A stretch of 59,361 nt of DNA, from the UHGV virus genome UHGV-0259576; one strand, written 5' to 3'. The position numbers and the translations under genes are program-made. Of the stretch, positions 1 to 36,827 are shown in pieces. Each line of letters opens with the position of its first letter. Position 1 is the stretch's first letter. The notes under the pieces were generated by a model that searched no databases, was not told the origin of the DNA, and saw only the letters and a program-made list of their open reading frames with translations. The stretch is from a virus.

Positions 1-272
1 CGATCACCGTTAAATTTTGCCCGGCGACTAATTCCGGCCCGGCGTTTATGCGCGCTTATTCCTGGCTGTTCCCGCGCGGAATTAAAGTAAATTATTCCCC
101 CCGTGTGGCGGATGGTTCCGATATTCAGGCAAATGCTCGCTATGCCGCCGGAATTATGCTTGACCAGATTAACGAGTCCTGTAAAGAGCACAGCGATATG
201 CGCGGTTATAAACTGGCGGATTATGTCCAGCTGTATAACGGGGATCGCCTTTTTGTTCTCATTCCGGGTTAA
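1..272 (+). CDS. hypothetical early protein, C-terminal part; 5' end lies in ORF 59094..59361 if the genome is circular
   Basis: Frame is open from nt 2 to the stop at 272. No SD precedes the internal ATG at 48. Reading 59094..59361 across the junction continues in the same frame. Confidence 0.4.
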   Translation, partial: ITVKFCPATNSGPAFMRAYSWLFPRGIKVNYSPRVADGSDIQANARYAAGIMLDQINESCKEHSDMRGYKLADYVQLYNGDRLFVLIPG

Positions 273-282
273 CGGGGGAGCT

Positions 283-480
283 ATGCTGGTCATTATGTTT
301 ATCGGCTATTTCATTATCGGCGTTTATATCGGGGCGGATATCCGCCGCGTTTTAAAGCGTTGCCGCATTGAACGCCGCCCGTGTTTTGGTCGTATGACTA
401 TTTATTTGCGTGAACGTAAGACCGGACGTCTGATCGGCTGTTCCAATAATATTTTTACTTTGATTTTGCAAGCCGCATAA
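283..480 (+). CDS. small hydrophobic protein (65 aa)
   Basis: ATG preceded by GGGGGAG SD. Hydrophobic N-terminal segment MLVIMFIGYFIIGVYIG. The ORF track's longer version starts in upstream out-of-frame junk. Confidence 0.4.
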   Translation: MLVIMFIGYFIIGVYIGADIRRVLKRCRIERRPCFGRMTIYLRERKTGRLIGCSNNIFTLILQAA

Positions 481-491
481 GGGGAATAAAA

Positions 492-1115
492 ATGCGTACA
501 TTAAACGTTTTCACATTTAACGAATTATCTGACGCCGCAAAAGAAAAAGCCGTTGAATGTTTCCGCTCTTACCGTAGCGGCTATGACTTCGACTATTCAG
601 AATATAAAGCCAGTCTGGAAGCATTTGCGGAGGATATCGGGATCACTATCAAAGATTGGTCCTACGGCCTGGACGGTTGCACGGTTAGATTCGATTTTGG
701 CGACCAGGAGGGACTGGATACAATGACGGGCGCGCGGGCTTACACGTGGATCGTGAATAATGTAAAAGGATTGCGCCCCGGTCCGCGGGTTTACACCATA
801 TCACGGGAAGTAAATCGACACGGCTTTACCCGTAATGAAAGGATCGTAAAACGTGTAAGCGGCGTTTATCGTGCGGATGATTGCTGCAATTATACCGGCG
901 TGTTTTGTGACGAAAATTTAATGCAGCCATTCCGCGAATTCCTGTCAAAGCCGGATAACCGCACTATTGCGGACCTGATAAATGAGGCTATCGATAGCTA
1001 TTGCAGCTCTTTACAGGCGGATCTTGAGTATCAGGAAAGCGATGAATTCCTAACCGAAGAATTGGTCAACGGTGATACACCTGAATTTTTCGAAAACGGC
1101 ACAATTTACGCATAA
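492..1115 (+). CDS. hypothetical early protein (207 aa)
   Basis: ORF with AAGGGGA SD 7 nt upstream. Tightly packed with neighbouring same-strand genes. Confidence 0.6.
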   Translation: MRTLNVFTFNELSDAAKEKAVECFRSYRSGYDFDYSEYKASLEAFAEDIGITIKDWSYGLDGCTVRFDFGDQEGLDTMTGARAYTWIVNNVKGLRPGPRVYTISREVNRHGFTRNERIVKRVSGVYRADDCCNYTGVFCDENLMQPFREFLSKPDNRTIADLINEAIDSYCSSLQADLEYQESDEFLTEELVNGDTPEFFENGTIYA

Positions 1116-1126
1116 GGGGGTTTATC

Positions 1127-1756
1127 ATGTTTACCGTTAATTACGAAAACGCCGCTACTTATAAAACGATGTTTATCGCCGCTTGCCATTGCAACGTTGA
1201 CCAGTGGCGACAATTGTTAGCCCTGGCGGATGATAAAGCCGCGTTTTATTGCCACCGTACAACGCAATCTAACGACACGGGGATCATTGTTCGCCTTGAT
1301 CCTATTGGCGACGATATCGGCGACACGTTAGCCGCCGCCGGGATTGATGACGAATTGATCGAGCTATTGACCGATATCCGCGAAAACGGACTTGACGCCG
1401 TACATTTTGACGCGGACGCCGATTTGCTCGCGTATAAACCCTGGTACACGGACGACGGCGCGAAGGTTATCCCGCTGGCGTATGAGCTGGACTATGTGAG
1501 CTATTACGATTTAACGCCAGAACAGCGGGAACAGGTATATCAGGATCGCGACGGTACCGGCGACGAATATATCGAAAACGAATATTTTGACCTGAGCGGC
1601 CAGGTTTATTGTATGGCGGATTTTATGCGCATAGGTGACGGCGGAATGGCTGATTATGGTTTCATCGGTGTAATGGGTGAACCCAATACATCGGCGCTAT
1701 ATATCTCATTATCCGATAATAGCGATTTTGTGAACGTTGTACGCGTGATCGGATAA
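1127..1756 (+). CDS. very acidic hypothetical early protein (209 aa)
   Basis: AAGGGGG SD. Translation is rich in D/E throughout (DDIGDTLAAAGIDDELIELLTDIREN...). Confidence 0.6.
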   Translation: MFTVNYENAATYKTMFIAACHCNVDQWRQLLALADDKAAFYCHRTTQSNDTGIIVRLDPIGDDIGDTLAAAGIDDELIELLTDIRENGLDAVHFDADADLLAYKPWYTDDGAKVIPLAYELDYVSYYDLTPEQREQVYQDRDGTGDEYIENEYFDLSGQVYCMADFMRIGDGGMADYGFIGVMGEPNTSALYISLSDNSDFVNVVRVIG

Positions 1757-1765
1757 GGGGGCGCT

Positions 1766-2092
1766 ATGTCAATTTTAATCACCATCGATTCAATTAGCCG
1801 CCGCGATGACTTGACGACGTTTCCACGGGTGACGCTTAAACCCTGGAATGGCGCCTACACCGTATCGCAGCTGTTACAAAAGGCCGCTAACGTATACAAG
1901 GTCCGCAACGGCTTAAAGGGCGCTGTACGCTTTGACGCGCTGGACTTTCCGAAGAGGATATCTTACGCCGGGGTGCCTGTTTTCGTGGTAGTGGGACGCG
2001 TTATGGCGGAACGTCGTCATTATGTCAAAGATATATCCGGCGTGGTCGAGGTGCGGATCAGCGGCATAATTCCGGAGGACTTGAGATCATGA
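1766..2092 (+). CDS. hypothetical protein (108 aa)
   Basis: AAGGGGG SD. Stop overlaps the next start (ATGA). Confidence 0.55.
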   Translation: MSILITIDSISRRDDLTTFPRVTLKPWNGAYTVSQLLQKAANVYKVRNGLKGAVRFDALDFPKRISYAGVPVFVVVGRVMAERRHYVKDISGVVEVRISGIIPEDLRS

Positions 2093-2301
2093 ATAGTGAC
2101 GCAAAAAAGGCCGTCGTAAAGTTCTCCGCGTGCGGCCTTATCGCTGGCTTTACCGTGATCGCCATTATCGCGGGCGACGGGGGCGGCCTGTTCCGCCCGA
2201 TACTTTACACCGTGGCTGGAGGGGTATGCTGTGGGCTGATATGGCCCACACAGGACCAGGGCGACGCCCTGCTGGACTGGATCAAAGAAGGGCGGCGATA
2301 A
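2089..2301 (+). CDS. small membrane protein (70 aa, 2 predicted TM)
   Basis: GGAGGA SD. Hydrophobic stretches LIAGFTVIAIIAG and VAGGVCCGLIW. Confidence 0.5.
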   Translation: MNSDAKKAVVKFSACGLIAGFTVIAIIAGDGGGLFRPILYTVAGGVCCGLIWPTQDQGDALLDWIKEGRR

Positions 2302-2345
2302 GCCGCCTTTCTTATTGGCGCTGATACCCGAACCGCGAAAACCGG

Positions 2346-2448
2346 GGTGACGCGGACAGCAAAAATGAAATAAATCCGGCTAAGGGGGTTGCACTCGTTA
2401 CGTGTGCATATTATGTTTATCGGACCCGGCGGGGAAACGCAGACAACA
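2346..2448 (+). repeat. copy 1 of duplicated ~100-bp promoter/leader block (second copy 58696..58798)
   Basis: Near-identical to 58696..58798: GGGGTGACGCGGA(C/A)AGCAAAAATGAAATAAATCCGG...GGGGTTGCAC...GTGCATATTATGTTTATCGGACCCGGCGGGGAAACGCAGACAAC. Confidence 0.75.
2389..2417 (+). promoter_or_regulatory. sigma70-like early promoter (TTGCAC-N17-TATGTT) with AT-rich upstream element and TGCAC-N9-GTGCA dyad
   Basis: -35 TTGCAC at 2389-2394, 17-nt spacer, -10 TATGTT at 2412-2417. Upstream AAAAATGAAATAAAT. Dyad TGCACtcgttacgtGTGCA overlaps the spacer. Identical architecture at 58740-58768. Confidence 0.5.
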
Positions 2449-2464
2449 ACAAACGAGGTTCAAA

Positions 2465-3280
2465 ATGACACACGACGAAATCACCGCAAAAATCAACGCT
2501 TTCACCCTGAAAGATGGCGTAAAGGTTAATTATAACTTTGACCAGTACGGATCCACGCAAGTCGAATTCCGCGAAGAAGGCGGCTCTCTCATCTGGCGCG
2601 GCTGGTCCTTTGAGGCGGATTTTGCTTTCTACCTGGATCGCGAGCTGGACCGCTACGGCGTGAGCAAATCAGCGGAGGAAATCGCAGAACAAGCCGCCGC
2701 CGCCCGCGCCAGCCGTTTACGTAATGACGCGATTTTTTGCCAGGACAACGGATTTGAAGCGCTTATATATTCCGAGTTCACCCGCGAAGAGATAGACGCG
2801 GAGATCGCCGCGATGAATCGTGACCTGGCCGCCGTGGAGGCGTATTGCGTCGCTGATAACCGCCGCCCGTCTCACGTACACCGCGCGGACTACGCAACGG
2901 ACGCCGAATACAGCGCCGCGAAGGTGGCGTTTTATGCGCATATCCTCCGATCCCTGTGGACGGTACGCGGGAACAGCGTTTACCGTCGCCAGGTAAAGAA
3001 AACCATTAAATCCCTGCGAGACTGGAAAGCGGTTGCACGCAAGGACGCGGACGCCGCCGGGGTGGCGGCGGTATCCGGTAACGCTCTCATGGTTAAACCC
3101 GTAAAAATAACCACGGCGGGCGGGATGACGTTGATCGCCTCGCAAGGCGACATAAAGATTTACCCGGCATTGATGCGCCTTAATGCTCTGTGGGATATGC
3201 GCCACGGCCTGACCCGTGACACTCACTACAACCATTCGCTGCCGTTCCACTGCATCGCGGGGATTGAATATGCGGGCTAA
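2465..3280 (+). CDS. hypothetical early protein (271 aa)
   Basis: First gene after promoter copy 1. AACGAGG SD. Start chosen at the ATG with an SD rather than the upstream in-frame ATG at 2402. Confidence 0.6.
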   Translation: MTHDEITAKINAFTLKDGVKVNYNFDQYGSTQVEFREEGGSLIWRGWSFEADFAFYLDRELDRYGVSKSAEEIAEQAAAARASRLRNDAIFCQDNGFEALIYSEFTREEIDAEIAAMNRDLAAVEAYCVADNRRPSHVHRADYATDAEYSAAKVAFYAHILRSLWTVRGNSVYRRQVKKTIKSLRDWKAVARKDADAAGVAAVSGNALMVKPVKITTAGGMTLIASQGDIKIYPALMRLNALWDMRHGLTRDTHYNHSLPFHCIAGIEYAG

Positions 3281-3521
3281 AGATATGCGACACGCGCAAG
3301 CCCGTTACACCGCGGAAAAATGGTGCGGGCATATCACGGCAAAAGGCTTTAAAGCGGCGGGCGATCTTCGCTTTACGCGGGTGGATGCCGATCTAACGTG
3401 GGATGACAAGGCCCGCGCCTGGTCGGTGACTATCTGGACCACGGAGGGGCGGGACCGTCTCAAAGTGCTTACCATTCGCAAAAATCCGGTTCTACCGGCC
3501 TTGCTTAAATCATTCTTTTAG
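3270..3521 (+). CDS. hypothetical protein (83 aa)
   Basis: ATG with GGGGA upstream. Overlaps the stop of the previous gene. Confidence 0.45.
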   Translation: MRAKDMRHAQARYTAEKWCGHITAKGFKAAGDLRFTRVDADLTWDDKARAWSVTIWTTEGRDRLKVLTIRKNPVLPALLKSFF

Positions 3522-3671
3522 GGGGTATCTATGTTCGCTTTCCGTGATGTTCTGGAAGTCGTTTTCCCGGCGGTAATGTTCGCCGTGGCGGTTGTCATCA
3601 TTTCCAGCGACTACCGTCGCAAACTCCGCGCAAGCGGTCGTAAATTCAAAAAGTAAGAAGGGGGAATTATT

Positions 3672-3878
3672 ATGGCTTCGGTATGGTTTTTAGTGGTGAC
3701 ACTGTGCACCGTTAACCCTGGTGCGCTGGCATCGGATTGTGATGACTACGTGATCGACGGCGATTTGTCGTATACCGACTGCATCCAGTCTATTGCACAA
3801 TTCCCGGAGAAGGCGGCATTGTTCGCTATCAGCTGTAAGCGCGGGGAACCACTGGACGGCGTAGGGGGTGAGGAGTGA
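3672..3878 (+). CDS. small secreted or membrane protein (68 aa) with N-terminal signal-like segment
   Basis: AGAAGGGGGAA SD. N-terminus MASVWFLVVTLCTVNPGALAS resembles a signal peptide. Confidence 0.45.
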   Translation: MASVWFLVVTLCTVNPGALASDCDDYVIDGDLSYTDCIQSIAQFPEKAALFAISCKRGEPLDGVGGEE

Positions 3879-4063
3879 AAAATTTTACAGTGTTACTCCA
3901 GGGCGGAACCACTGGCACAGTCCTTGCCGATAGCGTGGAGGTAGGTGACGTCGTCACCATAACCGGACACGATGAAAACGGCATGGTCTTTACTCTTACT
4001 GGTGTTGTGGAAGAAGTCCTGATAGAACACGACTAGCCGCCTGCCGTATTCCCGCCCCATAAG

Positions 4064-4088
4064 GCCCGCCATTGAGCGGGTCTTTTTA
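4064..4088 (+). terminator. rho-independent terminator closing the rightward early block
   Basis: Stem CCCGC/GCGGG with loop ATTGA, followed by TCTTTTT. Confidence 0.5.
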
Positions 4089-4848
4089 CGTCTGCCTTAT
4101 ACCCGAACCTACGTATCGCAGCCTATCGCCCTGGCCGCTGGCATAGCCCCCGGCGTGACCAGTGGATGAAAGAAGTTGCACTCACCCCGTTTCATAAAAT
4201 ACCCCTTTACGCCGTCCTAACAGCCTTTCTGAAATCCGATTAATTGCACGCGGTGCAGGTGCATCCCTGCCAGGTGGCGAGCGCGTTATATCGTGCTGTG
4301 GGCTTTCGGTATTGCACACGGGGAGTGTGTTATAGGCGCTGCCCTTGTGTGACCGTATCAATGCACCTGATGCATGTTCAATGAGGCCGCTTATCGCAGT
4401 GATCAGGCGTGTTTTTGTGTCGGGGTGGAGGTGTGACCGTGTGACCTGGTGCCGGTATGCCGATTCTGCCGCCGCTACGGGGGCTAGACGGGGCGATCGT
4501 GGGGGTGGTATGTAGGGGTATACCATGATCGAGGTTGCGCCCGTCTGCGTGGCGCTGGCGAAGGAATCCGGATCGAATTCAAAAAGGTACTTCCCGGGGG
4601 TCCTGGCGTGCCGGGGGTGCGCAGCGCGGTGGAAGAAAATGCGGCGAAATCCCCATAGCCCCACTTCGGAAATACATGATTTGCAGGCGTTTTTTCGAGT
4701 TTTGCCCGTAGGGCAGACGTGATTTTGCGTTCCAGGGGTGGTGCCATAAAGGCCGTTTTAGCCCCGCAACCGATTGATTGCATTACGTTTTGGGGTGGTG
4801 CTCTTACAAGGCCGGTTATCGACTTACGACAGCCCGAGTAACAATTTT

Positions 4849-5103
4849 ATTTGTTACCACGTTTGTTACCACGTTTGTTACCTCACTATCTTACTGTATT
4901 TCTTCTACTTTTCTCTTACTAAGACTAAAGGTAACAAATAAAAGCGATATTAAGTATGAAAGGTTTTTAAAGTTGAGTGTATGAGGTACATATTATTATA
5001 CATGTATAGAGTGAACCCCGTTTGTTACCTGCGTTACCTCGTCGTAAACCACTGGTACGCAAGGCAAAAACTCGGTAACAGACCGTGGTACTCGTTTGTT
5101 ACC
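4849..5103. repeat. iteron array (TTTGTTACC, 5 direct + 2 inverted copies) flanking an AT-rich palindromic core; candidate origin of replication
   Basis: Three tandem 12-mers GTTTGTTACCAC at 4849-4884. Inverted GGTAACAAA at 4931-4939. Further direct copies at 5021-5029 and 5095-5103. TGGTAC repeats at 5053-5058 and 5087-5092. AT-rich core 4940-5010 contains the palindrome ATACATGTAT. Confidence 0.5.
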
Positions 5104-5132
5104 AGCCAAAAATCGTGATTTTTTGAAAACCC

Positions 5133-5170
5133 GCAAAAACGGAAAAAGGGGCAAACGCCCCTTCGATTTT
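5133..5170. terminator. bidirectional hairpin terminator downstream of the prim-pol/helicase gene
   Basis: GGGGC-AAAC-GCCCC stem-loop at 5148-5161, flanked by an A-run (5133-5147, a T-run on the minus strand) and TTCGATTTT on the plus strand. Confidence 0.55.
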
Positions 5171-5185
5171 CCCCATTTTTGGAAA

Positions 5186-7777
5186 TTACACCTCGTCATC
5201 GTCTTCATAATCGAACGGATTTTTCGCTTTTCCGATCTTGTTTTCGACGATCTGGTTATGGTCTTTTAGCGTCTTAACGGCCCAAACGGTGTTCAGTTTT
5301 CCGTTCTCTCTTTTGGCCGCTCTAACGTTTCTTCTGGTGAAGCACCGGCCGGTAACGCCATCGATTTTTAGCAGTCCACCCGGCTCAAAACCGAGGTCCA
5401 GGAGAAGGTTTTTTAGTCTGTTCGTCTTCGGCATTTCGACGTCCGGCATCTCCATAAAAGCGTCCTTTAAAGCGGGCGAGAAAATAATGTCTTTGCACAC
5501 GCCTAGTGTCTCGTTCTCCCTGATCATGGTGGCTAACATCTCGCCGACGCCATCGCTGGAAGCCTCCATCATTACCTGGAAAGCACGGGTGTCCTGCGGG
5601 GCATGGCCCTTATGGTTGAAGTCCGGGGAGATCTCCCATTCTAGGAACCATTTCTTAATGGCAGGACCGTGATTTTCGATAGCCCGATAAACGTTAGAGA
5701 AGAACTTCTCGCGTTCCTTAGCCGAACCGTAAACGCGGTCCATGTCCATGTGGTTTTCGGCCTGCGTGGAGACGACCAGGTAGCGGCGCTGGTTCTCGTC
5801 CAGCGGCAGCGCGTTGATGTGGTTGGTGAACATCAATTTCGAGCTGGTATTCACCACGTCACGCGGCTTGACGCCTTTCCCTTCCACCTGGAAGCGGTCG
5901 TTCGAGATAAATTCCTTCTGCTTATCGACGGCGCTGTACCGATCGCCTTTGTCATACACCTCTTCCACGATTTTCAGGATGTGGCCTTCCGCCCAGTCGG
6001 TGAAACGGCCATTCATGACGGAGTTAGAGACGTATCCGATGTTCTGCGCCCCCAGCATTTCGCGCATAAGCACCCCGATCGTGGATTTACCCGAACCGTG
6101 CGCCCCGCGGATGAGCAGCGAATAGTTGATGCGCTTTGTCGGGTGCTGGACGATGTGCGCCAGCCAGTCCATGACGTACGTCCGCTCTTTCGTGTCAGGG
6201 AACAGCACGATAAATAGGTCTTTGACGATAGAAATGGCTTTTTTGTCCAGTTTTGACAGCTTTTCTGCTGCTTTTGGGATGCTTTCAGGCGAAAACGTGT
6301 TCAAACGTAGCAATCCGGAGTCGTCATAGAAGAATTCCGGCCCTAAAAGACCTTCTTTTTGCGTCCATTTCGTCTCCTGCATACCGCCATGCATCTCCGG
6401 ATAGTACATAACGTCGTGAATAATCGGGATTTTTACGACGTCCGTGGCGAACTTATTCGGCGATAAACCGCCTTCCACGTCGCCGATATCACGCCCATGG
6501 GACGAATCAAACGCGCTTTTTGACAGTAAAATCCCGGTTTTACGGCTAACAAAGGCGTCCTGGGCCTGGGCAAAGACGTATTCTTTCAGCCAATTCGGGG
6601 TATCCGCACGGGAAAAGTCGAAACTGAGGTACTCTTTAACGGCTTTGTTAGTCAGCGCGCTTTCGTTCAGGCGTTTGTAGGCTTTCTTGGCCGCGTCAAT
6701 AGTCGGCTGGCGCTCAATGCCGAAAACCCGCAGCTTACGGAAGTCGTCTGCCCAGGCTTTCCAGTCCGCCATGGTGGTGACTTCGTTGAATGCCTCGGTG
6801 AACTCGGAAACCTGTTCCCGGGCTTCCTTCTCTTCGATTTCGTGGACCGTTTTGATGATGGTGCCGATTGTAACCAGCGTCTGGGCATCATGGGTAAAGC
6901 CTTTTTCCCACTTGTACTCGAATTCTGACTCGTCATAGTTATCCGCCTGCATGGACCAGTCGCGGGCGATCTCTTTCGCTTCATCCTGGTCACGGCATGA
7001 CACCTGCAGCGCGGCCATTACCCGGATCCAGTTTTCATAGTTCTCCGGGTCAGGGTATTTCATGACGATATCGCGCAGCTCGTCGTAGGTGCCGTCCCAC
7101 TTGGTGACGGTGGCCATTGCCGCCCAGTCGTCATCGTCCGCTTCGCCTTCCGCCGCCCGTCCGTTAATGGCCCGTGCGACTTTCATCCATCCCTGTTTTT
7201 CGGCATAGGCGTCGAACGCGTCGGCGATATCGCGGGCGATCTCCAGCGTGATTTCAGGCAGGTCCATGGCGGCCGCGCAGTTCACCGGGGTATCATCGGT
7301 GATCCAGGTGTATTCCTTGCGCGTATCCGGGTGGATACCGAAGGCGACGAACTGCTGGCCATCACCCAGGATTTCGACTGCATGGCGCTGTCCGAAGTCA
7401 TCTTCCCAGGTGGCGGACTTGACCTTTTTGAACGGCTCGTCGGTATGGCAAAGCACCAGTTTTTTCGGTTGACGGCCAACACGAACCGGGCCGGCGCCGA
7501 TTTTCTTTTCGACAACGGCCATCATGTGCTTAACCCCGTCTTTGTCGTAGACGTCAATGTCTACCGCGGGGGTGTGCTTGGTCAGGATGCCGATGCCAGA
7601 TGACGCGTATTTCTTCACGAAACCGTTAATCTGGCCACGGGTGTTCTCGATTTTCTGCCAGTCTTCGAACGCAGGCCGTTTTCCTGCTTTTGGCCTGGGC
7701 GAGTCAGGCGGAATGATGGGAACGACGGTGAAGCCGTTTTCCCACAGCGCTATTCCGTATTCGTTCCAGTAGTTCAT
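5186..7777 (-). CDS. bifunctional primase-polymerase (prim-pol N-domain) fused to D5-like SF3 helicase (863 aa); C-terminal acidic tail ...YEDDDEV
   Basis: N-terminal prim-pol signature (VVPIIP...KRPAFEDW...AVDIDVYD...GIHPDTRKEYTW). Walker A GAHGSGKST in the C-terminal half. No competing ORFs over its length. Confidence 0.85.
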   Translation of the reverse strand: MNYWNEYGIALWENGFTVVPIIPPDSPRPKAGKRPAFEDWQKIENTRGQINGFVKKYASSGIGILTKHTPAVDIDVYDKDGVKHMMAVVEKKIGAGPVRVGRQPKKLVLCHTDEPFKKVKSATWEDDFGQRHAVEILGDGQQFVAFGIHPDTRKEYTWITDDTPVNCAAAMDLPEITLEIARDIADAFDAYAEKQGWMKVARAINGRAAEGEADDDDWAAMATVTKWDGTYDELRDIVMKYPDPENYENWIRVMAALQVSCRDQDEAKEIARDWSMQADNYDESEFEYKWEKGFTHDAQTLVTIGTIIKTVHEIEEKEAREQVSEFTEAFNEVTTMADWKAWADDFRKLRVFGIERQPTIDAAKKAYKRLNESALTNKAVKEYLSFDFSRADTPNWLKEYVFAQAQDAFVSRKTGILLSKSAFDSSHGRDIGDVEGGLSPNKFATDVVKIPIIHDVMYYPEMHGGMQETKWTQKEGLLGPEFFYDDSGLLRLNTFSPESIPKAAEKLSKLDKKAISIVKDLFIVLFPDTKERTYVMDWLAHIVQHPTKRINYSLLIRGAHGSGKSTIGVLMREMLGAQNIGYVSNSVMNGRFTDWAEGHILKIVEEVYDKGDRYSAVDKQKEFISNDRFQVEGKGVKPRDVVNTSSKLMFTNHINALPLDENQRRYLVVSTQAENHMDMDRVYGSAKEREKFFSNVYRAIENHGPAIKKWFLEWEISPDFNHKGHAPQDTRAFQVMMEASSDGVGEMLATMIRENETLGVCKDIIFSPALKDAFMEMPDVEMPKTNRLKNLLLDLGFEPGGLLKIDGVTGRCFTRRNVRAAKRENGKLNTVWAVKTLKDHNQIVENKIGKAKNPFDYEDDDEV

Positions 7778-8055
7778 TCAAGAATTTCCCCTGTATCCGG
7801 GTCGATTTTTATCCAGTCCGGGTTAGTGAACCAATGTGGTCGGATGCCAGAAGTTTTAGCGGCCTCACAAATTTTGACGGCCATCTGCCCGGAAACGGTG
7901 TTGCGGATATTCCAGATCATAGTGTCGTAATTTACGCCGGCCGCCTTCGCCAGTTTGGTAAGGTTGCCGTCCGGATCTACCTCCAGGGCAGCGATACCAG
8001 CGAGGTAACGCGGTCTTAGGGAGTGGTCTTTAATAGCCCACGGTGGGAATTTCAT
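7774..8055 (-). CDS. Cro/YdaS-like HTH transcriptional regulator (93 aa)
   Basis: ATG with GAGGA SD. HTH-like segment LTKLAKAAGVNYDTMIWNIRN. First gene of the leftward unit from the divergent control region. The TTG-extended ORF (to 8226) was rejected. Confidence 0.5.
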   Translation of the reverse strand: MKFPPWAIKDHSLRPRYLAGIAALEVDPDGNLTKLAKAAGVNYDTMIWNIRNTVSGQMAVKICEAAKTSGIRPHWFTNPDWIKIDPDTGEILE

Positions 8056-8093
8056 AGATGATCCTCGCGTGTGTGTGCGTGTAAGTAAAACGG

Positions 8094-8122
8094 ATATTAG
8101 TCTCGCGCTGCTACAAAGTAAA
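8094..8122 (-). promoter_or_regulatory. putative leftward promoter for the cro-like/prim-pol unit
   Basis: Minus strand reads TTTACT-N17-TAATAT about 40 nt upstream of the 8055 start. Confidence 0.4.
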
Positions 8123-8207
8123 GAGGGCGATACCCGGCGACCCCCGGTCATTTCACAAAGATCCCAGAAAAAACCAATGGGTGCCGAAAAATATTTTTGC
8201 GAAAGTG

Positions 8208-8236
8208 TTGACACGGGATGCGGCAATGGCCATACT
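8208..8236 (+). promoter_or_regulatory. putative rightward promoter for the replication/structural arm
   Basis: TTGACA at 8208-8213, 17-nt spacer, CATACT at 8231-8236. AT-rich upstream element AAAAATATTTTTG. Sits 50 nt upstream of gene 8286. Confidence 0.5.
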
Positions 8237-8285
8237 CCAAACCGTCAACACGACAAACCCAAATTAACCGAACGAGGATTTAACT

Positions 8286-8678
8286 ATGTCAGGTATTTTT
8301 GAACAGCTGCTGGCCGAACAACAAAAAACCAACTCCCTGCTGGAACAGCTGCTGGCGAATGGCGGTGCTTCTTCCGCTGCAGCAGGTGAAGACGCTGGCG
8401 CCGGTAAGACCACCGCCAAAGGTAAAACCACCGCCAAAGGCAAATCCACTGCTGCGGCAGACAAGCCGAAACACACCAAAGACGAAGTAGTCGCTGCGGT
8501 CGTAGCGGTGAAAGACCGCTTTGGCGCACCGGAAGCCAAAAAGATCACCGCTAAATTCGGCCTGGCCAAAATCGCCGAAGCGAAAGAAGAACACTTCGAC
8601 GCGATTTTCGACCTGTGTGAAGCCAAACTGGCCGAACCGGAAGAGGATGAAGGCAACTCCGAAGAAGACGACGTTTAA
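8286..8678 (+). CDS. acidic low-complexity protein (130 aa) with in-frame 18-bp tandem repeat; C-terminus ...SEEDDV
   Basis: GAACGAGGA SD. Contains GKTTAKGKTTAKGKSTAA repeats. First gene of the rightward arm. Confidence 0.6.
   Translation: MSGIFEQLLAEQQKTNSLLEQLLANGGASSAAAGEDAGAGKTTAKGKTTAKGKSTAAADKPKHTKDEVVAAVVAVKDRFGAPEAKKITAKFGLAKIAEAKEEHFDAIFDLCEAKLAEPEEDEGNSEEDDV
8403..8456 (+). repeat. 18-bp tandem repeat (x2 perfect + 1 degenerate) inside CDS 8286..8678
   Basis: GGTAAGACCACCGCCAAA / GGTAAAACCACCGCCAAA / GGCAAATCCACTGCTGCG. Confidence 0.7.
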
Positions 8679-8696
8679 TCGTCGATCGTGTAACTC

Positions 8697-8717
8697 GGCC
8701 CCTGCGGGGGCCGTTTT
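8697..8717 (+). terminator. intra-operon hairpin+T-run (terminator or attenuator)
   Basis: GGCCCC-TGCG-GGGGCC followed by GTTTT, between genes 8286..8678 and 8733..9083. Confidence 0.45.
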
Positions 8718-8732
8718 AGCAGAGAGGTTATT

Positions 8733-9083
8733 GTGAATAAGTTTGGAACGGCAATAGCTATGACTACCGGCGGCGGAGAGGAAGTGCCTATGTGGGCAGA
8801 GTTCCGCTTCGAAATTGGCGACCGTAACCCCTTATTCAGAGTAACTTCCCCCACACGTGGCCAGAACGGCCGGCGGATTAACGGGGAATTCCGTTTCGTC
8901 GTAACCCATGTTGGGTCCGGGTATCGTTTCACCGATTTCCGTTTCGACCTTTTAGCGAAAGCCCGTTACAACCTGAAACGGAACAACTACGGAAGGGCCG
9001 GCGCAATGGCGGTTAAAAAGACAATCGATGAAGTAGGCATTGAACGAGTTTTACGCGCCATAAAAGGCTACCCGGATGAGTAA
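8733..9083 (+). CDS. hypothetical protein (116 aa, GTG start)
   Basis: GTG preceded by AGAGAGG SD. Stop overlaps the next gene. Confidence 0.5.
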   Translation: MNKFGTAIAMTTGGGEEVPMWAEFRFEIGDRNPLFRVTSPTRGQNGRRINGEFRFVVTHVGSGYRFTDFRFDLLAKARYNLKRNNYGRAGAMAVKKTIDEVGIERVLRAIKGYPDE

Positions 9084-10425
9084 GTCTTTCCTGGTTCGTG
9101 TTATGCAGGAGTTTGCGGGCGGCGGGCATTCGATATTCGCGCCGTCTGCCTCTGCGATGTGGACGGCCTGCGGAGGAAGCCTGCTGGCCAACCTTTTCGA
9201 AGAGGACGAGTGCAGCTATGAAGCGGCGGAAGGAACCGTCGCCCACGGCATCGCCGAGCAGTGGCTGAAAACGGACATCCGACCGACGCATCTTATCGGA
9301 ACTACGCAGGTCATCGAGGAAAAAGGCGTTCGGCATGAGATTGTCGTCACCCGCTCTATGATCGACTATGTTCAGGATTACGTTGACTGGTGCCGGTTCG
9401 AAGAAGGAATGATGCTGACGGAAATCCGGGTCTGGTTCACCGACCTGATGCCGCCAGCCAACGCTGACGAGCTGGAGGAAGACCCGGATGCCGAAGTAGT
9501 GCCGTTTCTCCCGCAGGGCGGTACCGCGGATAACATCATCATTCGTGACCGGGTGCTGATTGTCACCGACCTGAAATACGGAACCGGCGTCCAGGTTTTC
9601 GCGGAAGGAAACCCCCAGGCGTTGCTCTATGCATACGGGGCGTACCGCGCATTTAGCGACGAGTACGAGTTTGACCGGGTCATCATCCGGATCGCACAGC
9701 CGAGGTTTGAGCATTTCGACGTTTGGGAAGTGACTGTCGACGAACTGCTGGACTTCGCCGAGTTCATCCGCGAGCGTGCAGCGGCCGCCTGGTCACTCAA
9801 AGCCAAACGCAAGGCGACTCTGAAAGGGTGCCGGTGGTGCCGGGCCGCGCATCATTGCGCAGCGGTGGCGTACATGATGGAATGCGCCGTCGGTGCCGAC
9901 CTCGAATTCCTGGACACTGAATTCGGAGATTATGAGATGTCGCAGTTACGCGCCGCCCTGGCGGAAGAATACAAAATGCGGAAGGCAAAGTTCGGCGATC
10001 TGTCCGTTGCCGAGATGGCCAAGATCCTGCCGTACCGCAAAGTGATTGAAAACTGGTTCGCCCGCCTGGACCTGGAGCTGGAGCGGGCGGCGAAAGACGG
10101 TAAGCCGGTTCCCGGGCATAAGCTGGTGGAATCACGCTCTAACCGTGCGCATACCAACGTCGAAAAGGCTAAGGAGCTGTATGATTTCCTCGGCCTTGAC
10201 GAAAAAGACTATATGAAAACTGAATTGCGCTCGCCGGCGCAGATGGAAGAAGTTCTTCGGGATAAACTTGGACTGTCACGCGCCGGCGCGCCAATGGTCA
10301 TCGAAAGCGTCGTATGGAAGCCGGAAGGCAAGCCGACCCTGGTACCACTGACTGATAAGCGGCCACCGCTGGATCAGAAATATTCCGGCGCCTATGACGA
10401 CGAAGATGACGACGATGACGTGTAA
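9076..10425 (+). CDS. PD-(D/E)XK nuclease of the DUF2800/Cas4-RecB-like family (449 aa); C-terminus ...DDDDDV
   Basis: Motifs IIIRDRVLIVTDLKYGTG (D..D.K) and QALLYAYGA (QxxxY). Four-Cys cluster ...CRWCRAAHHC... typical of Cas4-like Fe-S nucleases. Confidence 0.75.
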   Translation: MSKSFLVRVMQEFAGGGHSIFAPSASAMWTACGGSLLANLFEEDECSYEAAEGTVAHGIAEQWLKTDIRPTHLIGTTQVIEEKGVRHEIVVTRSMIDYVQDYVDWCRFEEGMMLTEIRVWFTDLMPPANADELEEDPDAEVVPFLPQGGTADNIIIRDRVLIVTDLKYGTGVQVFAEGNPQALLYAYGAYRAFSDEYEFDRVIIRIAQPRFEHFDVWEVTVDELLDFAEFIRERAAAAWSLKAKRKATLKGCRWCRAAHHCAAVAYMMECAVGADLEFLDTEFGDYEMSQLRAALAEEYKMRKAKFGDLSVAEMAKILPYRKVIENWFARLDLELERAAKDGKPVPGHKLVESRSNRAHTNVEKAKELYDFLGLDEKDYMKTELRSPAQMEEVLRDKLGLSRAGAPMVIESVVWKPEGKPTLVPLTDKRPPLDQKYSGAYDDEDDDDDV

Positions 10426-10471
10426 ATCGGTAAGATGGTAAACCCGTAAATTCGTAACCCGGAGTAGAGAA

Positions 10472-11092
10472 ATGGCTGAAAAATTAATTCCCATTAAGAA
10501 AGTTAAAAACGGCGTTCTGTATAAGAGCGGTCACATCAAAGTTTCCAACGTACGCGCTTCATATCCGCACCTGGGCGCACCATACGGCGGAGACGGCGAA
10601 GGCGAGCCTAAATACGGTATCGTCGGGCTTCTGCCGAAGAAAACGCACAAAGAGATTTACCTGCTGCTGAAAGAGCAGATCGAAGTCGCCAAAAAGAACC
10701 ACAAAACCGGTCCGCTTAAAGTTGCTCCGGCCATGTTGTTCCTGAAAGACGGCGATGCAGATTATCCGGATAAGCCGGATTACGCAGGCATGTGGGTTGT
10801 TTCTGCGCGCGAGAGCAAAAAGCCCGAGGTTTTTGACATTGATCGCGATGAGTTAACGAGTAAGGCTGAGATTGAGGAAGAGATTTACGGCGGTTGCTGG
10901 GTCTCCATGGTTATCCGTCCGTGGACCCAGGAGAACAAATACGGCAAACGCGTAAACGCTAACCTGATCTCTGTTTTAAAGCGTAAAGATGACGAACCGT
11001 TCGGCGAAGGTCGTGTTGATACCTCCGACGCGTGGGATGACGACGAAGACTGGGAAGACGACGACGCCGGCGATGAAGACGACGACGTTTAA
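10472..11092 (+). CDS. DUF2815-family phage ssDNA-binding-like protein (206 aa); C-terminus ...DEDDDV
   Basis: GGAG SD. Conserved DUF2815-like core (IYGGCWVSMVIRPWTQ...GKRVNANLISV). Long acidic tail. Position between DUF2800 nuclease and DNA polymerase is typical for this family. Confidence 0.65.
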   Translation: MAEKLIPIKKVKNGVLYKSGHIKVSNVRASYPHLGAPYGGDGEGEPKYGIVGLLPKKTHKEIYLLLKEQIEVAKKNHKTGPLKVAPAMLFLKDGDADYPDKPDYAGMWVVSARESKKPEVFDIDRDELTSKAEIEEEIYGGCWVSMVIRPWTQENKYGKRVNANLISVLKRKDDEPFGEGRVDTSDAWDDDEDWEDDDAGDEDDDV

Positions 11093-11158
11093 CCCCCAGC
11101 CCGTCGGGCATTGAAACCGGAAGCCCGCCTAGTGCGGGCTTTCTCATAAGAGGACACC

Positions 11159-13201
11159 ATGGCCGATATTATTAACCTTGACTACGAAAGCCGGGCGCGC
11201 GTCGATTTGACGAAGCAAGGCCTGGACCGTTATTCACGCTGTCCGGATGCTAAAATCCTGATGGCAGCATATTCTGTTAACAATGGCAAGGTACAGCATG
11301 CCGACCTGTCCCGTGGCGCGAAGATGCCGGCAGAGCTGAAAGAAGCGCTGCTTGACCCTCACGTGGAGAAGTGGGCGTTCAATGCGCAATTCGAAAGGGT
11401 GATGACCCGCCGAGTTCTTGGCCTGAAAACCCCGTATAAATCCTGGCGATGCACGATGGTTCTGGCTTACATGCTGGGCTTTGCTGGCGATCTTCTGCAG
11501 GTAGGTAAGCAGATCGGGCTGAAAGAAGACCAGCTGAAAGACCCGGATGGCAAGCGGTTGATACGGATGTTCTGCATGCCTCAACGCGTCACCAAAAATA
11601 ACCCTTTTGAGTGGCGTAACGAACTTACGGATCCCGAAGAGTGGTGGGGCTTCTGCCGGTACAACATTCGCGACGTTGAAACTGAAATGCTGATTAAAAA
11701 TCGGCTTATCAAATACCCCATACTGCCGCAGGAATGGGACTTATACGCGCTTGACCAGCTTATCAATGACCGCGGCGTAATGATCGATACCGAATTCGCG
11801 CAGGCCGCACTGGACTTGGCTGACATGCGCAAACCGCAAATCATCGAAGAGATGAAAGACCTTACCGGCCTTCAAAACCCTAATTCCGTCTCACAATTGC
11901 TCCCGTGGTTACGCGAACGCGGATATCCGTTTGACGACCTTAGAAAAGACACGGTCGAGAAGGTTATCAGGGAGCAGGAAGAGAACGGCATTGATAGCGA
12001 AGCCATTCCCATTCTTAGCCTCCGGCTTAATAGCGCAAAAAACTCGGTTGCCAAATACCGGACTATGAAAAATGCGGCGGGTCACGATGGTAGATTCCGC
12101 TACTCTCTGCAGTTCGCCGGTGCCAGCCGGACGAACCGCTGGGCGGGACGAAAGATCCAGACGCAAAACCTGCCACGTACTCCAAAATTCCTGGAAGCGG
12201 TTGAAGACCTCACTATCGCGAACCGGTTCATCGCGAATAGGGAACTGGACAACCTGGCACTTTTCGTAGGTGAACCGATGGATGCGCTTGTCGGATGCAT
12301 CCGGTCTGCGTTTATCCCCTCGCCCGGTCACAAGTTTATCGTTGCCGACCTTGCTTCGATTGAGTCGGTCGTGATCGGGTGGCTGACAGACTGCAAATGG
12401 TTCATGGATACGCTGGCGATAAAACATGACCTGTATCGGTCGTTTGCGGCCCACTGGCTCGGATTGCCATACGAGGAGACAATCCCTCATCGTACTAAAG
12501 CGAAACCCGCCACCCTGGGTGCAGGTTATCGCCTTGGTGGCGGCCACCTTGGCGACGATGGGAAGAAAACCGGTCTGTGGGGATACGCGGAGAACATGGG
12601 CGTTCATATGACCCAGAAAGAAGCCGCGGATTCGGTGAAAGCGTTTCGTGAACTTTGCCCGGAAATCGTGGAGGCATGGAAACAGCTGGAAAACTGTGTC
12701 TTCCAGGTTATCCGTACGCATCGCCCGGTTAAGTGGAAGTGTCTGACTATCGAATACACCAAGCCATTCCTGACTATTAAGTTACCGTCAGGCCGCAAGA
12801 TGTACTACTTCCGCCCGCGCATCGTAGAACGCCAGATGACGGTTCAGAGCGGTGAACGTAAAGGCGAAAAGTACACCACTCTGAACTTCCAGTACGAAGG
12901 GAAAATCGAAAAAGCCAATGGTTCGTCCTGGGGCAAGGTGTTCAGCCACGGCGGCAAACTGGTGGAAAACATAGTTCAGGCCCTGGCGCGTGACGTCCTC
13001 GCCGAAGGGATGAAGAAGGCACACCGCATGGGCTTTAAGATCGTCATGCATATCCACGATGAGATCGTTACCGAAGTCCCGGAAGACAGCCCGTTAACCC
13101 TTGCTGACCTGATCGGCTGCATGGCGGCTAAACTGCCATGGGCGCCCGGATTACCGCTTGGCGCCGCCGGATGGGAAGGATATTTCTACAGGAAAGACTG
13201 A
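11159..13201 (+). CDS. family-A DNA polymerase with N-terminal 3'-5' exonuclease domain (680 aa)
   Basis: Exo I LDYE. Pol motif A (IVADLASIES), motif B (RTKAKPATLGAGY), motif C (MHIHDEIV). AAGAGGA SD. Confidence 0.9.
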   Translation: MADIINLDYESRARVDLTKQGLDRYSRCPDAKILMAAYSVNNGKVQHADLSRGAKMPAELKEALLDPHVEKWAFNAQFERVMTRRVLGLKTPYKSWRCTMVLAYMLGFAGDLLQVGKQIGLKEDQLKDPDGKRLIRMFCMPQRVTKNNPFEWRNELTDPEEWWGFCRYNIRDVETEMLIKNRLIKYPILPQEWDLYALDQLINDRGVMIDTEFAQAALDLADMRKPQIIEEMKDLTGLQNPNSVSQLLPWLRERGYPFDDLRKDTVEKVIREQEENGIDSEAIPILSLRLNSAKNSVAKYRTMKNAAGHDGRFRYSLQFAGASRTNRWAGRKIQTQNLPRTPKFLEAVEDLTIANRFIANRELDNLALFVGEPMDALVGCIRSAFIPSPGHKFIVADLASIESVVIGWLTDCKWFMDTLAIKHDLYRSFAAHWLGLPYEETIPHRTKAKPATLGAGYRLGGGHLGDDGKKTGLWGYAENMGVHMTQKEAADSVKAFRELCPEIVEAWKQLENCVFQVIRTHRPVKWKCLTIEYTKPFLTIKLPSGRKMYYFRPRIVERQMTVQSGERKGEKYTTLNFQYEGKIEKANGSSWGKVFSHGGKLVENIVQALARDVLAEGMKKAHRMGFKIVMHIHDEIVTEVPEDSPLTLADLIGCMAAKLPWAPGLPLGAAGWEGYFYRKD

Positions 13202-13497
13202 TGGCCGAATGGGGAACCCCTGTCGTCAGGGAATCGAAGGTCGAAGGCCGCTGCTGCGAGTATGCGCAGGGCCGCGGCTGGTGGGTGTCGAAGTTCACGG
13301 CACCTGGGAAAAAGGCCGTTCCGGATCGCGTTTTTATCCGGAATGGCGTTGTGCTTTTTGTGGAATTCAAGCGCCCTGGCGAAGAGCCGACGCTGCAGCA
13401 GCGCAACCGCCATCGGCAGATGAAAGCCAAAGGGGCTAACGTGACATGGGTGGACAATTTTGAAGACTTTAAGAACTACCTTATCGCCTTTGAGTAA
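13201..13497 (+). CDS. VRR-NUC domain nuclease (98 aa)
   Basis: ATG overlaps the polymerase stop (ATGA). The ~100-aa sequence matches the VRR-NUC pattern (E..VEG.C..YA...GWWVSKFTAPGKK..PDRVFI.NG.VLFVEFKRPGE.PT..Q...H.QM.A.GA). Confidence 0.75.
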   Translation: MAEWGTPVVRESKVEGRCCEYAQGRGWWVSKFTAPGKKAVPDRVFIRNGVVLFVEFKRPGEEPTLQQRNRHRQMKAKGANVTWVDNFEDFKNYLIAFE

Positions 13498-15031: not shown

Positions 15032-15584
15032 AACTGCCCCGCTGGCGACCCGCAATCGGCGGTCGAATGCGCCGGACGCTGATACCGAGGCGATGATTTT
15101 TCAGGGATGCAACATAACGCAACTGGCGAAGCTGTTCCGCATGGAGCGCCGGGACATCACGCCGAAGATCATGGATATCCCGCCCGTCGGGGAGCGCGGC
15201 GGGTACCCGATTTACGCAGTCCACGAAGTCGCGCCGTACCTGGTGAAACCGCTGTACGACGTCGAGACGTATCTGCGTCGCATGAACTTCAAAGACCTTC
15301 CCAAAGAGCTGTCGAAGGAGTTCTGGAACGGCCAGCGCGCGAAGCAGGAATATGACCTGCGCGCAGGGAACCTGTGGCCAACGGAAGACGTGGTCAGTGT
15401 ATTCGGCGAAGCAATCAAAACGCTGCGAATGAGTCTGCTGCTGATCCCCGACACATTATCGCGGCAGGTAGGGCTTACCGAAACGCAGCGCAACGTGGTG
15501 CAGTCATCGGTGGATTCAATACTGGATGACCTCGCGAATACACTGGAAAAACGGTTCGCGGAGGAAGAAGACGATGAAGTTTAA
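15015..15584 (+). CDS. putative terminase small subunit / DNA-packaging protein (189 aa); C-terminus ...EEDDEV
   Basis: ACGGAG SD. Located immediately upstream of, and overlapping, the GpA-type large terminase. Confidence 0.45.
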   Translation: MTKTTKTAPLATRNRRSNAPDADTEAMIFQGCNITQLAKLFRMERRDITPKIMDIPPVGERGGYPIYAVHEVAPYLVKPLYDVETYLRRMNFKDLPKELSKEFWNGQRAKQEYDLRAGNLWPTEDVVSVFGEAIKTLRMSLLLIPDTLSRQVGLTETQRNVVQSSVDSILDDLANTLEKRFAEEEDDEV

Positions 15585-17649: not shown

Positions 17650-17912
17650 GGATGACCACCATGACCCCAGATGAATGCCGAGCCAAGTACCAACAATGGC
17701 TGAATGACGCTATGGACGCCTATAACCAGCTGAACGTCGGTGGTTCGGTGCGTGTTGTGGTGGATCAGAACGGCGAACGCGTAGAGTATACGGCGGCCAA
17801 CCGCCAGAGCCTGTGGGCGTATATTCTGCGACTGCAGAACGCAATTAACTCACCCGACCCGTGCAGAGCCTTCTTCGGCACGCCGAGTCGCCCAGCGAGG
17901 TTTATTTTCTGA
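17646..17912 (+). CDS. head-tail joining protein, lambda gpW-like
   Basis: Small protein between terminase and portal. C-terminus ...GTPSRPARFIF resembles lambda W ...RRRGPAGFYV. Alternative start at ATG 17661 (GAGGA SD). Confidence 0.55.
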   Translation: MRMTTMTPDECRAKYQQWLNDAMDAYNQLNVGGSVRVVVDQNGERVEYTAANRQSLWAYILRLQNAINSPDPCRAFFGTPSRPARFIF

Positions 17913-20913: not shown

Positions 20914-20925
20914 GAGGCGACTAAC

Positions 20926-21315: not shown

Positions 21316-21327
21316 GGAGCAGCAGAA

Positions 21328-22392: not shown

Positions 22393-22442
22393 CCACCTGC
22401 AGGCCCGTCAATAATGGCGGGCCAATTTAAAGGACAGAGATT

Positions 22443-22712: not shown

Positions 22713-22713
22713 T

Positions 22714-24199: not shown

Positions 24200-24212
24200 C
24201 AGGAGATGAAAG

Positions 24213-25352: not shown

Positions 25353-25376
25353 GAGCAGACCGCAGTCACACCGGAA

Positions 25377-25400
25377 AGCGCCTACGGGCGCTTTTCTTTT
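25377..25400 (+). terminator. rho-independent terminator after the major tail gene
   Basis: AGCGCC-TACG-GGCGCT followed by TTTCTTTT. Confidence 0.6.
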
Positions 25401-25458
25401 ATGCTTTTCTGCCGACGTGCTACATTAACGACGTCAACCAACGAAGAGGATAAACCCC

Positions 25459-30456: not shown

Positions 30457-30459
30457 TGA

Positions 30460-33249: not shown

Positions 33250-33252
33250 AAC

Positions 33253-34101: not shown

Positions 34102-34109
34102 GGGGCGCC

Positions 34110-36825: not shown

Positions 36826-36827
36826 CC

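Follow-up and report, generated by a model that had tools for sequence, protein, structure and literature searches.

We analyzed UHGV-0259576, a stretch of viral DNA of 59,361 nucleotides (nt; here, the window), which is the complete genome of a Klebsiella Yonseivirus, a chi-like siphophage of the family Casjensviridae with Soft, Seifer, KPN N137, PIN1, and PIN2 among its relatives. Our subject is a promoter-plus-leader cassette that is present twice in the window, ahead of two different rightward sets of genes; we refer to the copies as cassettes A and B and to the genes behind them as operons A and B. Pairwise alignment and a repeat finder (family D2) place the copies at 2344-2447 and 58695-58798, 104 nt with 92% identity, and the flanks are unrelated on both sides. 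A 39-nt stretch that runs from the -10 region into the leader, TATTATGTTTATCGGACCCGGCGGGGAAACGCAGACAAC, is identical in A and B and is found nowhere else in the window, and 0 of 100 shuffles gave such a match. Past an indel of 7 to 8 nt, the similarity picks up again through AAACGAGGT, so that the shared unit spans about -78 to the Shine-Dalgarno (SD) sequence. The cassettes, as delimited from the alignment and from relatives, and the operons behind them comprise the following features (protein lengths in amino acids, aa).

58695..58822, + strand: cassette B (first rightward promoter and leader), with shared upstream segment 58695-58711; A-rich, UP-like tract 58712-58726; -35 TTGCAC 58740-58745; 19-bp dyad 58741-58759; -10 TATGTT 58763-58768; predicted start at about 58773-58775; GC hairpin CCCGGCGGGG 58776-58785; CA-rich leader; SD AAACGAGG 58809-58816; ATG 58823
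58823..59361 and on across the window start to 2301, + strand: operon B, with genes 58823..59080 (DUF7300, 85 aa), 59095..272, 492..1115, 1127..1756 (DUF5983), 1766..2092, and 2089..2301
2285..2316, + strand: intrinsic terminator ending operon B (12-bp stem, -21.9 kcal/mol, U-rich tail)
2344..2464, + strand: cassette A (second rightward promoter and leader), with A-rich tract 2361-2375; -35 TTGCAC 2389-2394; dyad 2390-2408; -10 TATGTT 2412-2417; predicted start at about 2422-2424; hairpin CCCGGCGGGG 2425-2434; SD AAACGAGG 2451-2458; ATG 2465
2465..4036, + strand: operon A, running toward the right cohesive end (cos), with genes 2465..3280 (DUF905-like, 271 aa), 3270..3521, 3531..3656, 3672..3878, and 3875..4036
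4061..4088, + strand: intrinsic terminator ending operon A (-15.0 kcal/mol, then UCUUUUU)
4616-4627, + strand: probable 12-nt cos overhang GGTGCGCAGCGC

A preliminary description of this DNA had reported near-identical segments of about 100 bp ahead of two unrelated open reading frames (ORFs), each with TTGCAC-N17-TATGTT and a TGCAC-N9-GTGCA dyad. The alignment bears out the repeat, both motifs are present as described in each copy, and the downstream ORFs are indeed unrelated, one encoding the DUF905-like and the other the DUF7300 protein. The same description had named an assembly artifact as one outcome that would overturn it, and a repeat created by assembly or circularization might be suspected, since each copy lies close to one end of the window. 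Against this, the copies have different flanks and downstream genes and differ at 8% of positions. Exactly two cassette places, in the same contexts, are found in 22 of 22 related Klebsiella Yonseivirus records, and both copies likewise occur in independent IMG/VR and metagenome contigs. These comparative data refute an artifact, to which we give practically no credence.

For comparison among relatives, copies A and B from 12 genomes were aligned, and 63 copies were parsed from all loci, of which 36 are unique. Scans of IMG/VR and metagenomes returned further Yonseivirus copies only, with no new hairpin variant except one broken pair. We rejected a reading of the cassettes as leader-peptide genes (ORFs 2389..2529 and 58755..58874): the residues are common only through the common DNA, and the ATG lies inside the -10 element, upstream of the predicted start.

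When the linear genomes of Soft and Seifer are placed on the window, their ends fall at about 4615-4628, where GGTGCGCAGCGC (4616-4627) is probably the 12-nt cohesive end. The window therefore presents the packaged, cos-ended genome in circularly permuted form, and A and B do not lie at opposite genome ends, as the window suggests, but are consecutive promoters only 3 kb apart, with an operon and a terminator between them. The real map runs from a divergent control region (58.14-58.82 kb) through cassette B, operon B, a terminator, cassette A, operon A, and a second terminator to cos.

Core promoter and operon organization

The element TTGCAC-N17-TATGTT in both cassettes has the geometry of a sigma-70 promoter, with a -35 TTGnnn and a -10 TAnnnT lying 16 to 18 bp apart. 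Of 30 unique promoter cores, 29 have TTGCAC as the -35 hexamer and one has TTGAAC, and the -10 hexamer is TATGTT in 20, TACATT in 8, and TATGGT in 2. The TTG of the -35 and positions T1, A2, and T6 of the -10 are invariant and the spacing is constant at 17 bp; positions 3 to 5 of the -10 vary. Read from the aligned cores, this substitution pattern is the signature of a sigma-70 promoter. The A-rich tract at -63 to -49 (2361-2375 and 58712-58726) would suit only the distal subsite of an UP element, which is expected at about -40 to -60; A-rich tracts lie upstream of the -35 in other genera too. By these sequence features, A and B are very probably two copies of one promoter for the host RNA polymerase, heading two rightward operons. 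An N4-type hairpin promoter was considered and rejected, as the full annotation of the Seifer genome includes no RNA polymerase and the six promoters of the window that carry the dyad all have canonical -35 and -10 hexamers at 17 bp.

The proteins of operons A and B are all small and of unknown function, belonging to DUF7300, DUF5983, DUF905, and unannotated PHROGs families; the last gene of operon B (2089..2301) encodes a 70-aa membrane-like protein. The terminator at 2285-2316 lies directly upstream of cassette A, and so strong a terminator at this point explains the need for a second promoter. About 530 nt of non-coding DNA separate the second terminator (4061-4088) from cos. On the other side of this junction, TTTGTTACC has five copies in the genome, all just inside the left cos end (4850-5103), including a tandem triplet at 4850-4882 with inverted GGTAAC copies close by; these are candidate sites for terminase or cos binding or for replication initiation.

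The divergent control region upstream of cassette B contains a further repeat. Iteron-like 25-nt units, CAGCCTGCCAGCTTTTTCAAGTAAG, lie on the + strand at 58230, 58261, 58429, and 58474 (58230-58498), between the first leftward promoter and cassette B, and the same ...TTTTTCAAGTAAG unit occupies the equivalent place five times in Chi, Enc34, Smarc5, PibeRecoleta, and JC01, three times in PM87, and, as a variant, six times in JS26. This array is probably a family-conserved replication origin or regulator array. A 120-aa ORF (58298-58660, + strand) that spans the iteron region is annotated as a coding sequence in PIN2; it overlaps the repeats, its translation is rich in Arg, Pro, Gly, and Trp, and it is probably not a gene.

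The spacer dyad and its candidate binder

The TGCAC-N9-GTGCA dyad makes up the outer portion of a near-palindrome of 19 bp, TGCAC(W)CG-N3-CG(W)GTGCA. In A and B it fills the promoter spacer, extending from position 2 of the -35 to 3 bp before the -10. A genome scan found 8 sites with at most 3 mismatches, compared with 0.77 expected: A, B, four leftward promoters, and two sites near cos, with a third near-cos site at 4 mismatches. The four leftward promoters form repeat family D1, and no other sigma-70 matches in 44-58 kb score as well as these four, which agree with the consensus at 10 of 12 positions each. Their dyad takes the equivalent place with an offset of 1 bp, so that in all six promoters it ends 2 to 3 bp before the -10. 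The additional sites are as follows.

58184..58212, - strand: leftward promoter TTGACA-17-TATCTT with the dyad in its spacer, divergent from cassette B, predicted to drive the DUF7609 gene (58142..57765) and downstream DNA-metabolism genes
54355..54383, - strand: leftward promoter TTGACA-17-TACATT with the dyad
49280..49308, - strand: leftward promoter TTGACA-17-TAGTAT with the dyad
46928..46956, - strand: leftward promoter TTGACA-17-TAATAT with the dyad
4244-4263, 4312-4331, and 4361-4380, + strand: three promoter-less sites of the TTGCAC-N9-GTGCA type in non-coding DNA, about 250-370 bp from the cos end

The near-cos sites keep TTGCAC-N9-GT(G/T)(C/T)A, without a -10, in the relatives whose fetched DNA spans them (10 of 11), so that upkeep of the motif does not depend on promoter function. 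The dyad thus overlaps the core promoter in six places and is both over-represented and conserved apart from promoter elements. Such conservation is what is expected of a protein-binding site, and a protein bound at this place in a promoter spacer should occlude RNA polymerase. The dyad is probably the operator of a dimeric DNA-binding protein. Beside these sites, the Soft record has a run of about 20 A at approximately 5715-5740 (window approximately 4165-4176), just upstream of the first near-cos TTGCAC motif, where GATGAAAAG is found in the other phages; the run may reflect expansion of a homopolymer or an error of sequencing in that record.

The 9-bp core between the dyad arms (2395-2403 and 58746-58754) occurs among copies and phages as exact reverse complements, in the pairs TCGTTCCGT/ACGGAACGA and TCATTCCGT/ACGGAATGA. 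On the sequences compared, this implies recurrent small inversions of the spacer segment between the 5-bp arms, with the promoter kept, and it would fit a symmetric binder that is indifferent to orientation. Across genera, the half-site CAYACG recurs with the same 3-bp spacing in the rightward early and the leftward promoters of Chi, Enc34, Smarc5, and PibeRecoleta. JC01 has a looser form, and PM87 has none in its early promoters.

Among the proteins of the window, one stands out as a possible binder.

7774..8055, - strand: candidate regulator of 93 aa, predicted Cro/XRE-like helix-turn-helix (HTH), upstream of the primase gene

Homologs of this protein are annotated as "transcriptional regulator" in Chi, Soft, and Seifer, and it contains an HTH-like motif, LTKLAKAAGVNYDTMIWNI. 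Genera with the operator have this protein; in Proteus phages, where the operator is lacking, it was not seen. This distribution is confounded by phylogeny. A sequence search of the PDB with this protein gave no match. Pfam and PHROGs searches of 36 window proteins detected a DNA-binding domain in none of them; two Seifer proteins of the region were searched as well, and one of these, gp001, gave the only match, which was to HTH_37. The fully annotated Seifer genome lists two regulator candidates, the HTH_37 protein and the "transcriptional regulator" upstream of primase. The gp001 gene (554-886 in Seifer) adjoins the left cos end and is absent from our genome, where 4640-5186 has no counterpart, which makes this regulator-like gene an accessory one in the genus. 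The DUF7609 protein, encoded beside the divergent region, was considered as the regulator and rejected for lack of support, being acidic and having no HTH and no relative in the PDB. The 93-aa protein is an unproven candidate binder of the dyad and should be taken as a lead. In the leader of its own gene (8056-8110, - strand) lie direct ACACGC/CACACG repeats, ACACGCACACACACGCG, which resemble operator half-sites and are non-palindromic.

Leader, family-wide layout, and timing

Near the head of the predicted transcript, 1 to 3 nt after its start, lies CCCGGCGGGG, which can form a 3-bp stem with a 4-nt loop (CCC-GGCG-GGG, -4.5 kcal/mol). The motif CCC-NNCG-GGG lies equally far from the -10 in Yonseivirus, Chi, and JS26, with a UUCG loop in the latter two, and in Chi and JS26 a second GC stem-loop follows it. 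A compensatory variant, CCGGGCGCGG, is found in 4 of the 36 unique Yonseivirus copies, and in one copy the pair is broken to A.C. Past the hairpin, the leader is an unstructured, CA-rich sequence up to its terminal AACGAGG, and other promoter-proximal genes of the phage have similar CA-rich leaders. The full leaders of the window do not differ significantly from shuffled sequences (z = -1.85 and -0.02), those of JS26 and Smarc5 fold with z from -2 to -3.9, and a search of the whole window against Rfam at gathering thresholds gave 0 matches. A hairpin seen by eye in Enc34 was rejected as too near the -10 to be transcribed. We take the leader to provide an efficient translation start of a generic kind, along with a short 5' hairpin, which may protect the transcript end.

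The preliminary description had read the conservation beyond the promoter as a sign that the first rightward genes share a control at the RNA or the operator level. The operator part of that proposal stands in a broadened form, as the dyad is common to several sites. Since it also lies in leftward promoters at 46.9, 49.3, 54.4, and 58.2 kb, it is no special control of the first rightward genes and instead marks, by its predicted sites, a genome-wide regulon. Recurrence of TGCAC in the 4.1-4.8 kb region is likewise confirmed (TGCACgcgGTGCA at 4245-4257), except that the second site starts at 4312 and not at 4309. The RNA part is weakly supported: the folds are like those of shuffled sequences, and across relatives only one of the three stem pairs covaries, with one exception.

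The paired arrangement extends well beyond Yonseivirus. DUF7609, the product of the first leftward gene, is conserved across the Casjensviridae and was used to fetch the equivalent regions of other genera; a repeat tblastn search with this protein returned nothing further. Two to three mutually similar promoter-plus-leader units lie ahead of rightward small-gene operons in Chi, PibeRecoleta, Enc34, Smarc5, JS26, PM87, and JC01, and the operon genes of the window have homologs in the same order in the operons of those genera (none were detected in the JS26 cluster). The homolog of the 70-aa gene (2089..2301) is the last before the second promoter in all five genera in which both were mapped (Chi, Enc34, Smarc5, PibeRecoleta, and JC01), and the homolog of the gene at 2465 is the first after it in Chi, PibeRecoleta, and Enc34. 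As the second promoter lies between orthologous genes across genera, the two-promoter layout is ancestral. Judged from this gene order, the paired-cassette layout is family-wide and no peculiarity of UHGV-0259576.

The two copies have also changed together. Leader identity is 0.74 within a genome compared with 0.50 between genera, and on these values the paralogous cassettes evidently co-evolve within each lineage. Within Yonseivirus, A-A identity is 0.836, B-B is 0.878, and A-B of the same genome is 0.825, so orthologs are slightly closer than paralogs; this rules out strong recent concerted evolution within the genus, which holds only between genera. Partial exchange between A and B is nevertheless visible in an 8-nt insert in the A copies of RAH2 and S9a, in MAG26fr_B being closest to Soft_A, and in the shuffled orientation of the dyad. 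Depending on the phage, the gene directly behind cassette B is one of three different ones, and the sequences part immediately past the SD, which indicates that the cassette also serves as a module junction. The shared upstream segment is deleted in Seifer_A with no apparent harm.

Expression data for the family come from the Serratia phage JS26 (Casjensviridae, Dunedinvirus). Its cos-proximal small-gene cluster gp01-gp13 is expressed at 5 min by strand-specific RNA sequencing (RNA-seq) and by transposon sequencing (Tn-seq) is non-essential, as well as highly expressed and probably located on the DNA injected first (PMC8754663; bioRxiv 10.64898/2025.12.19.695335). The promoters and leaders are not described in these two papers; the JS26 RNA-seq reads are public (PRJNA746619 / GSE186673). 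As in our genome, the JS26 map has a cos end, two small-gene operons toward cos, and then divergent DNA-metabolism genes. At the heads of both operons (gp13 and gp05), a duplicated sigma-70-like promoter (TTGCAT-N17-TATATT) is followed by a CCC-UUCG-GGG hairpin and then by another GC hairpin, and the two leaders are almost the same as far as the ATG. In contrast to our genome, the early promoters of JS26 are without the dyad, which is present only in the first "middle" promoter, upstream of record position 7132, and no homology between the proteins was detected. The cos-adjacent position and the JS26 data make it plausible, by analogy, that cassettes A and B are early; as JS26 offers no detectable protein homology, the link is positional and architectural only. 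It is on this analogy that we infer initiation and early timing. JS26 also has a 35-nt translation-initiation unit, TAAACCGAACGCTTAGGAGTTC... (coding strand), ahead of five early genes, beyond the promoter-proximal ones (2965-2999, 4236-4270, 4854-4888, 6067-6101, and 6307-6341).

Interpretation and alternative readings

Our interpretation starts from what is directly observed, namely the conserved repeat, the geometry of its promoters and the way in which they vary, the two terminators, the dyad distribution, and the family layout. It is probable, if by no means assured, that A and B are paralogous sigma-70 cassettes heading two consecutive rightward operons of small accessory genes on the right-hand end of the linear genome, with an operator shared with four leftward promoters and three near-cos sites. 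In the mechanism that we propose, cassette B would fire into operon B until the strong intrinsic terminator stops transcription, and cassette A, 40 bp farther along, would restart it for operon A toward cos. A dimeric protein, most likely phage-encoded, would occlude RNA polymerase when bound to the spacer dyad and so would co-regulate A and B with the four leftward DNA-metabolism promoters and the three near-cos sites. The GC hairpin at about +1 to +12 might, at a guess, guard the 5' end of the mRNA in the manner of ompA, and the unstructured CA-rich leader with SD AAACGAGG would provide a standard efficient translation start. Shared functional constraint together with occasional exchange would keep A and B alike, and the cassette ends would act as junctions at which downstream genes are swapped between phages. 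We infer repression through the dyad, the identity of its binder, and the role of the hairpin.

Several observations weigh against this interpretation. Cassettes A and B match the sigma-70 consensus at 7 of 12 positions, and for this reason a simple sigma-70 scan lists neither, while it does list the four leftward promoters. The palindrome in JS26 is found only in the first DNA-metabolism ("middle") promoter and is absent from the early ones, which misfits a simple model of early shut-off, and no protein homology was detected between operons A/B and the JS26 early cluster. For the 93-aa candidate, AlphaFold2 reached a predicted local distance difference test score of 92, with just one of five models confident, from a shallow alignment (a word-indexed homolog search gave 6 sequences); Foldseek matches of the model are all XRE/Cro/cI HTH proteins and are weak (E values of at least 0.14), and Pfam reports no HTH in the protein. 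Its alleles are 52-100% identical among Yonseivirus phages of like operator, and there is no dyad in the region upstream of its own gene. The hairpin is no more stable than shuffled sequences (z about 0), Enc34 has none at the equivalent place, and pair 3:8 of the hairpin is C:G in 31, G:C in 4, and A.C in 1 of the 36 unique Yonseivirus copies, with the other two pairs invariant.

The likeness of A and B outside the ordinary promoter could instead be functionless. The copies, which are direct repeats at a distance of 3 kb, would then be kept alike mainly by recombination or gene conversion and by recombination between phages at the module junction, and the leader and the 20 nt upstream would hitch-hike. 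The three different genes after cassette B with a break right after the SD, the mixed A- and B-type features of RAH2, S9a, MAG26fr_B, and the dyad orientation, the apparently harmless deletion in Seifer_A, and the signature of concerted evolution in all eight genera, where paralogs are more alike than orthologs of different genera, are all points in favor of such an origin. However, conversion must be infrequent, since orthologs are closer than paralogs within the genus, and the leader is still about as conserved as the core promoter; the position of CCC-NNCG-GGG is common to genera with otherwise unalignable leaders, and the dyad is conserved at sites without a promoter. We regard recombination as the main cause as possible, though unlikely.

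Constraint on the leader could also come from the RNA itself, if the leader were a cis-acting regulatory RNA. It might modify RNA polymerase as a put- or nut-like antitermination element, or an RNA-binding protein or RNase encoded by the phage might act on it and thereby time early expression. Lambda (nutL/nutR) and HK022 (putL/putR) offer precedents for matched leader elements behind a pair of early promoters. The similarity of A and B does go on for about 40-50 nt past the predicted start, to the SD, and the hairpin, including the extra-stable UUCG loop, keeps its position in three genera, with the second GC stem-loop in Chi and JS26, the stable folds of JS26 and Smarc5, and one compensatory pair change in Yonseivirus pointing the same way. 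Yet that change may be a single event and one sequence breaks the pair, there is no Rfam match, and the leaders of the window are no more stable than shuffled ones. Moreover, no boxA- or boxB-like sequence and no N-like protein were identified, and a terminator after operon B followed by a fresh promoter is the opposite of what processive antitermination needs. We consider a regulatory RNA distinctly unlikely. A combined, family-wide module seems improbable as well. In it, a small Cro-like phage protein would read the spacer operator, which recurs in the DNA-metabolism promoters and in the array of sites by the cos end that is injected first; the CCC-NNCG-GGG leader would act as a cis-acting RNA signal, through put-like polymerase modification or as the target of an RNA-binding protein or nuclease of the phage, and set the lifetime or elongation of the early transcript; and the paralogs would co-evolve with these trans-factors in each Casjensviridae lineage. 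The dyad, finally, might be read by a transcription factor of the enterobacterial (Enterobacterales) host, which would tie the early and DNA-metabolism promoters to host physiology. In favor of this, CAYACG-N3-CGTRTG is kept across phages of Klebsiella, Salmonella, Hafnia, Serratia, and Providencia, whereas the candidate phage regulator differs strongly between those phages, even within Yonseivirus, and no phage binder is proven. On the other hand, JS26 and PM87 have no such motif in their early promoters, despite their related hosts. We know of no host factor that matches the dyad, and the nearest host motif, TGCAC-N7-GTGCA of NtrC, differs in its spacing, which we count against a host factor. 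A host protein appears very unlikely as the binder, and we retain the paired cassettes under a probably phage-encoded operator-binding protein as our interpretation.

The arrangement can be compared with PL and PR of lambda, which share the operators OL and OR and carry nutL and nutR in their leaders. In both phages, one operator sequence overlaps the cores of two early sigma-70 promoters, each promoter has a similar element at the head of its transcript, and a small protein of the Cro/cI fold with an HTH is the expected binder, for which our genome offers a candidate only. Unlike the lambda promoters, A and B are co-directional and in series, with an operon and a terminator between them; each has a single spacer dyad and no tripartite operator, the dyad recurs in four other promoters and three non-promoter sites, and the genome has no lysogeny module, boxA/boxB, or N-like protein. 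The A1, A2, and A3 promoters of T7 are repeated early promoters for the host RNA polymerase at the leading genome end. Like A and B, they are similar sigma-70 promoters clustered at the end thought to enter first, ahead of small, non-essential genes for host takeover and anti-defense. They stand in tandem before one transcription unit and share no operator, whereas A and B each have an operon of their own with an operator-like palindrome and a leader. The leader resembles the 5' untranslated region of ompA and the T7 gene 10 leader, which have stabilizing stem-loops at the 5' terminus, in having a short GC stem-loop near the (predicted) 5' end, an unstructured A/C-rich segment, and a strong SD. 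It differs from them in its stem, which has just 3 bp, does not exceed shuffled sequence in stability, and lies at a predicted 5' end.

Repeated early promoters under a common operator are an ordinary and well-known kind of phage regulation and will not surprise a specialist. For the Casjensviridae, which comprise chi-like flagellotropic phages and their Klebsiella relatives, several of them proposed for therapy, transcriptional control is essentially undescribed, and our literature search found no paper on the promoters, dyad, or leaders treated here. The present analysis gives a regulatory map with six predicted sigma-70 promoters, an operator consensus, three near-cos operator-like sites, two terminators, and a candidate regulator. 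This map should aid annotation across the family and the reading of the RNA-seq and Tn-seq data of JS26. For phage engineering, the cassettes may serve as natural, portable units of early expression and as recombination junctions.

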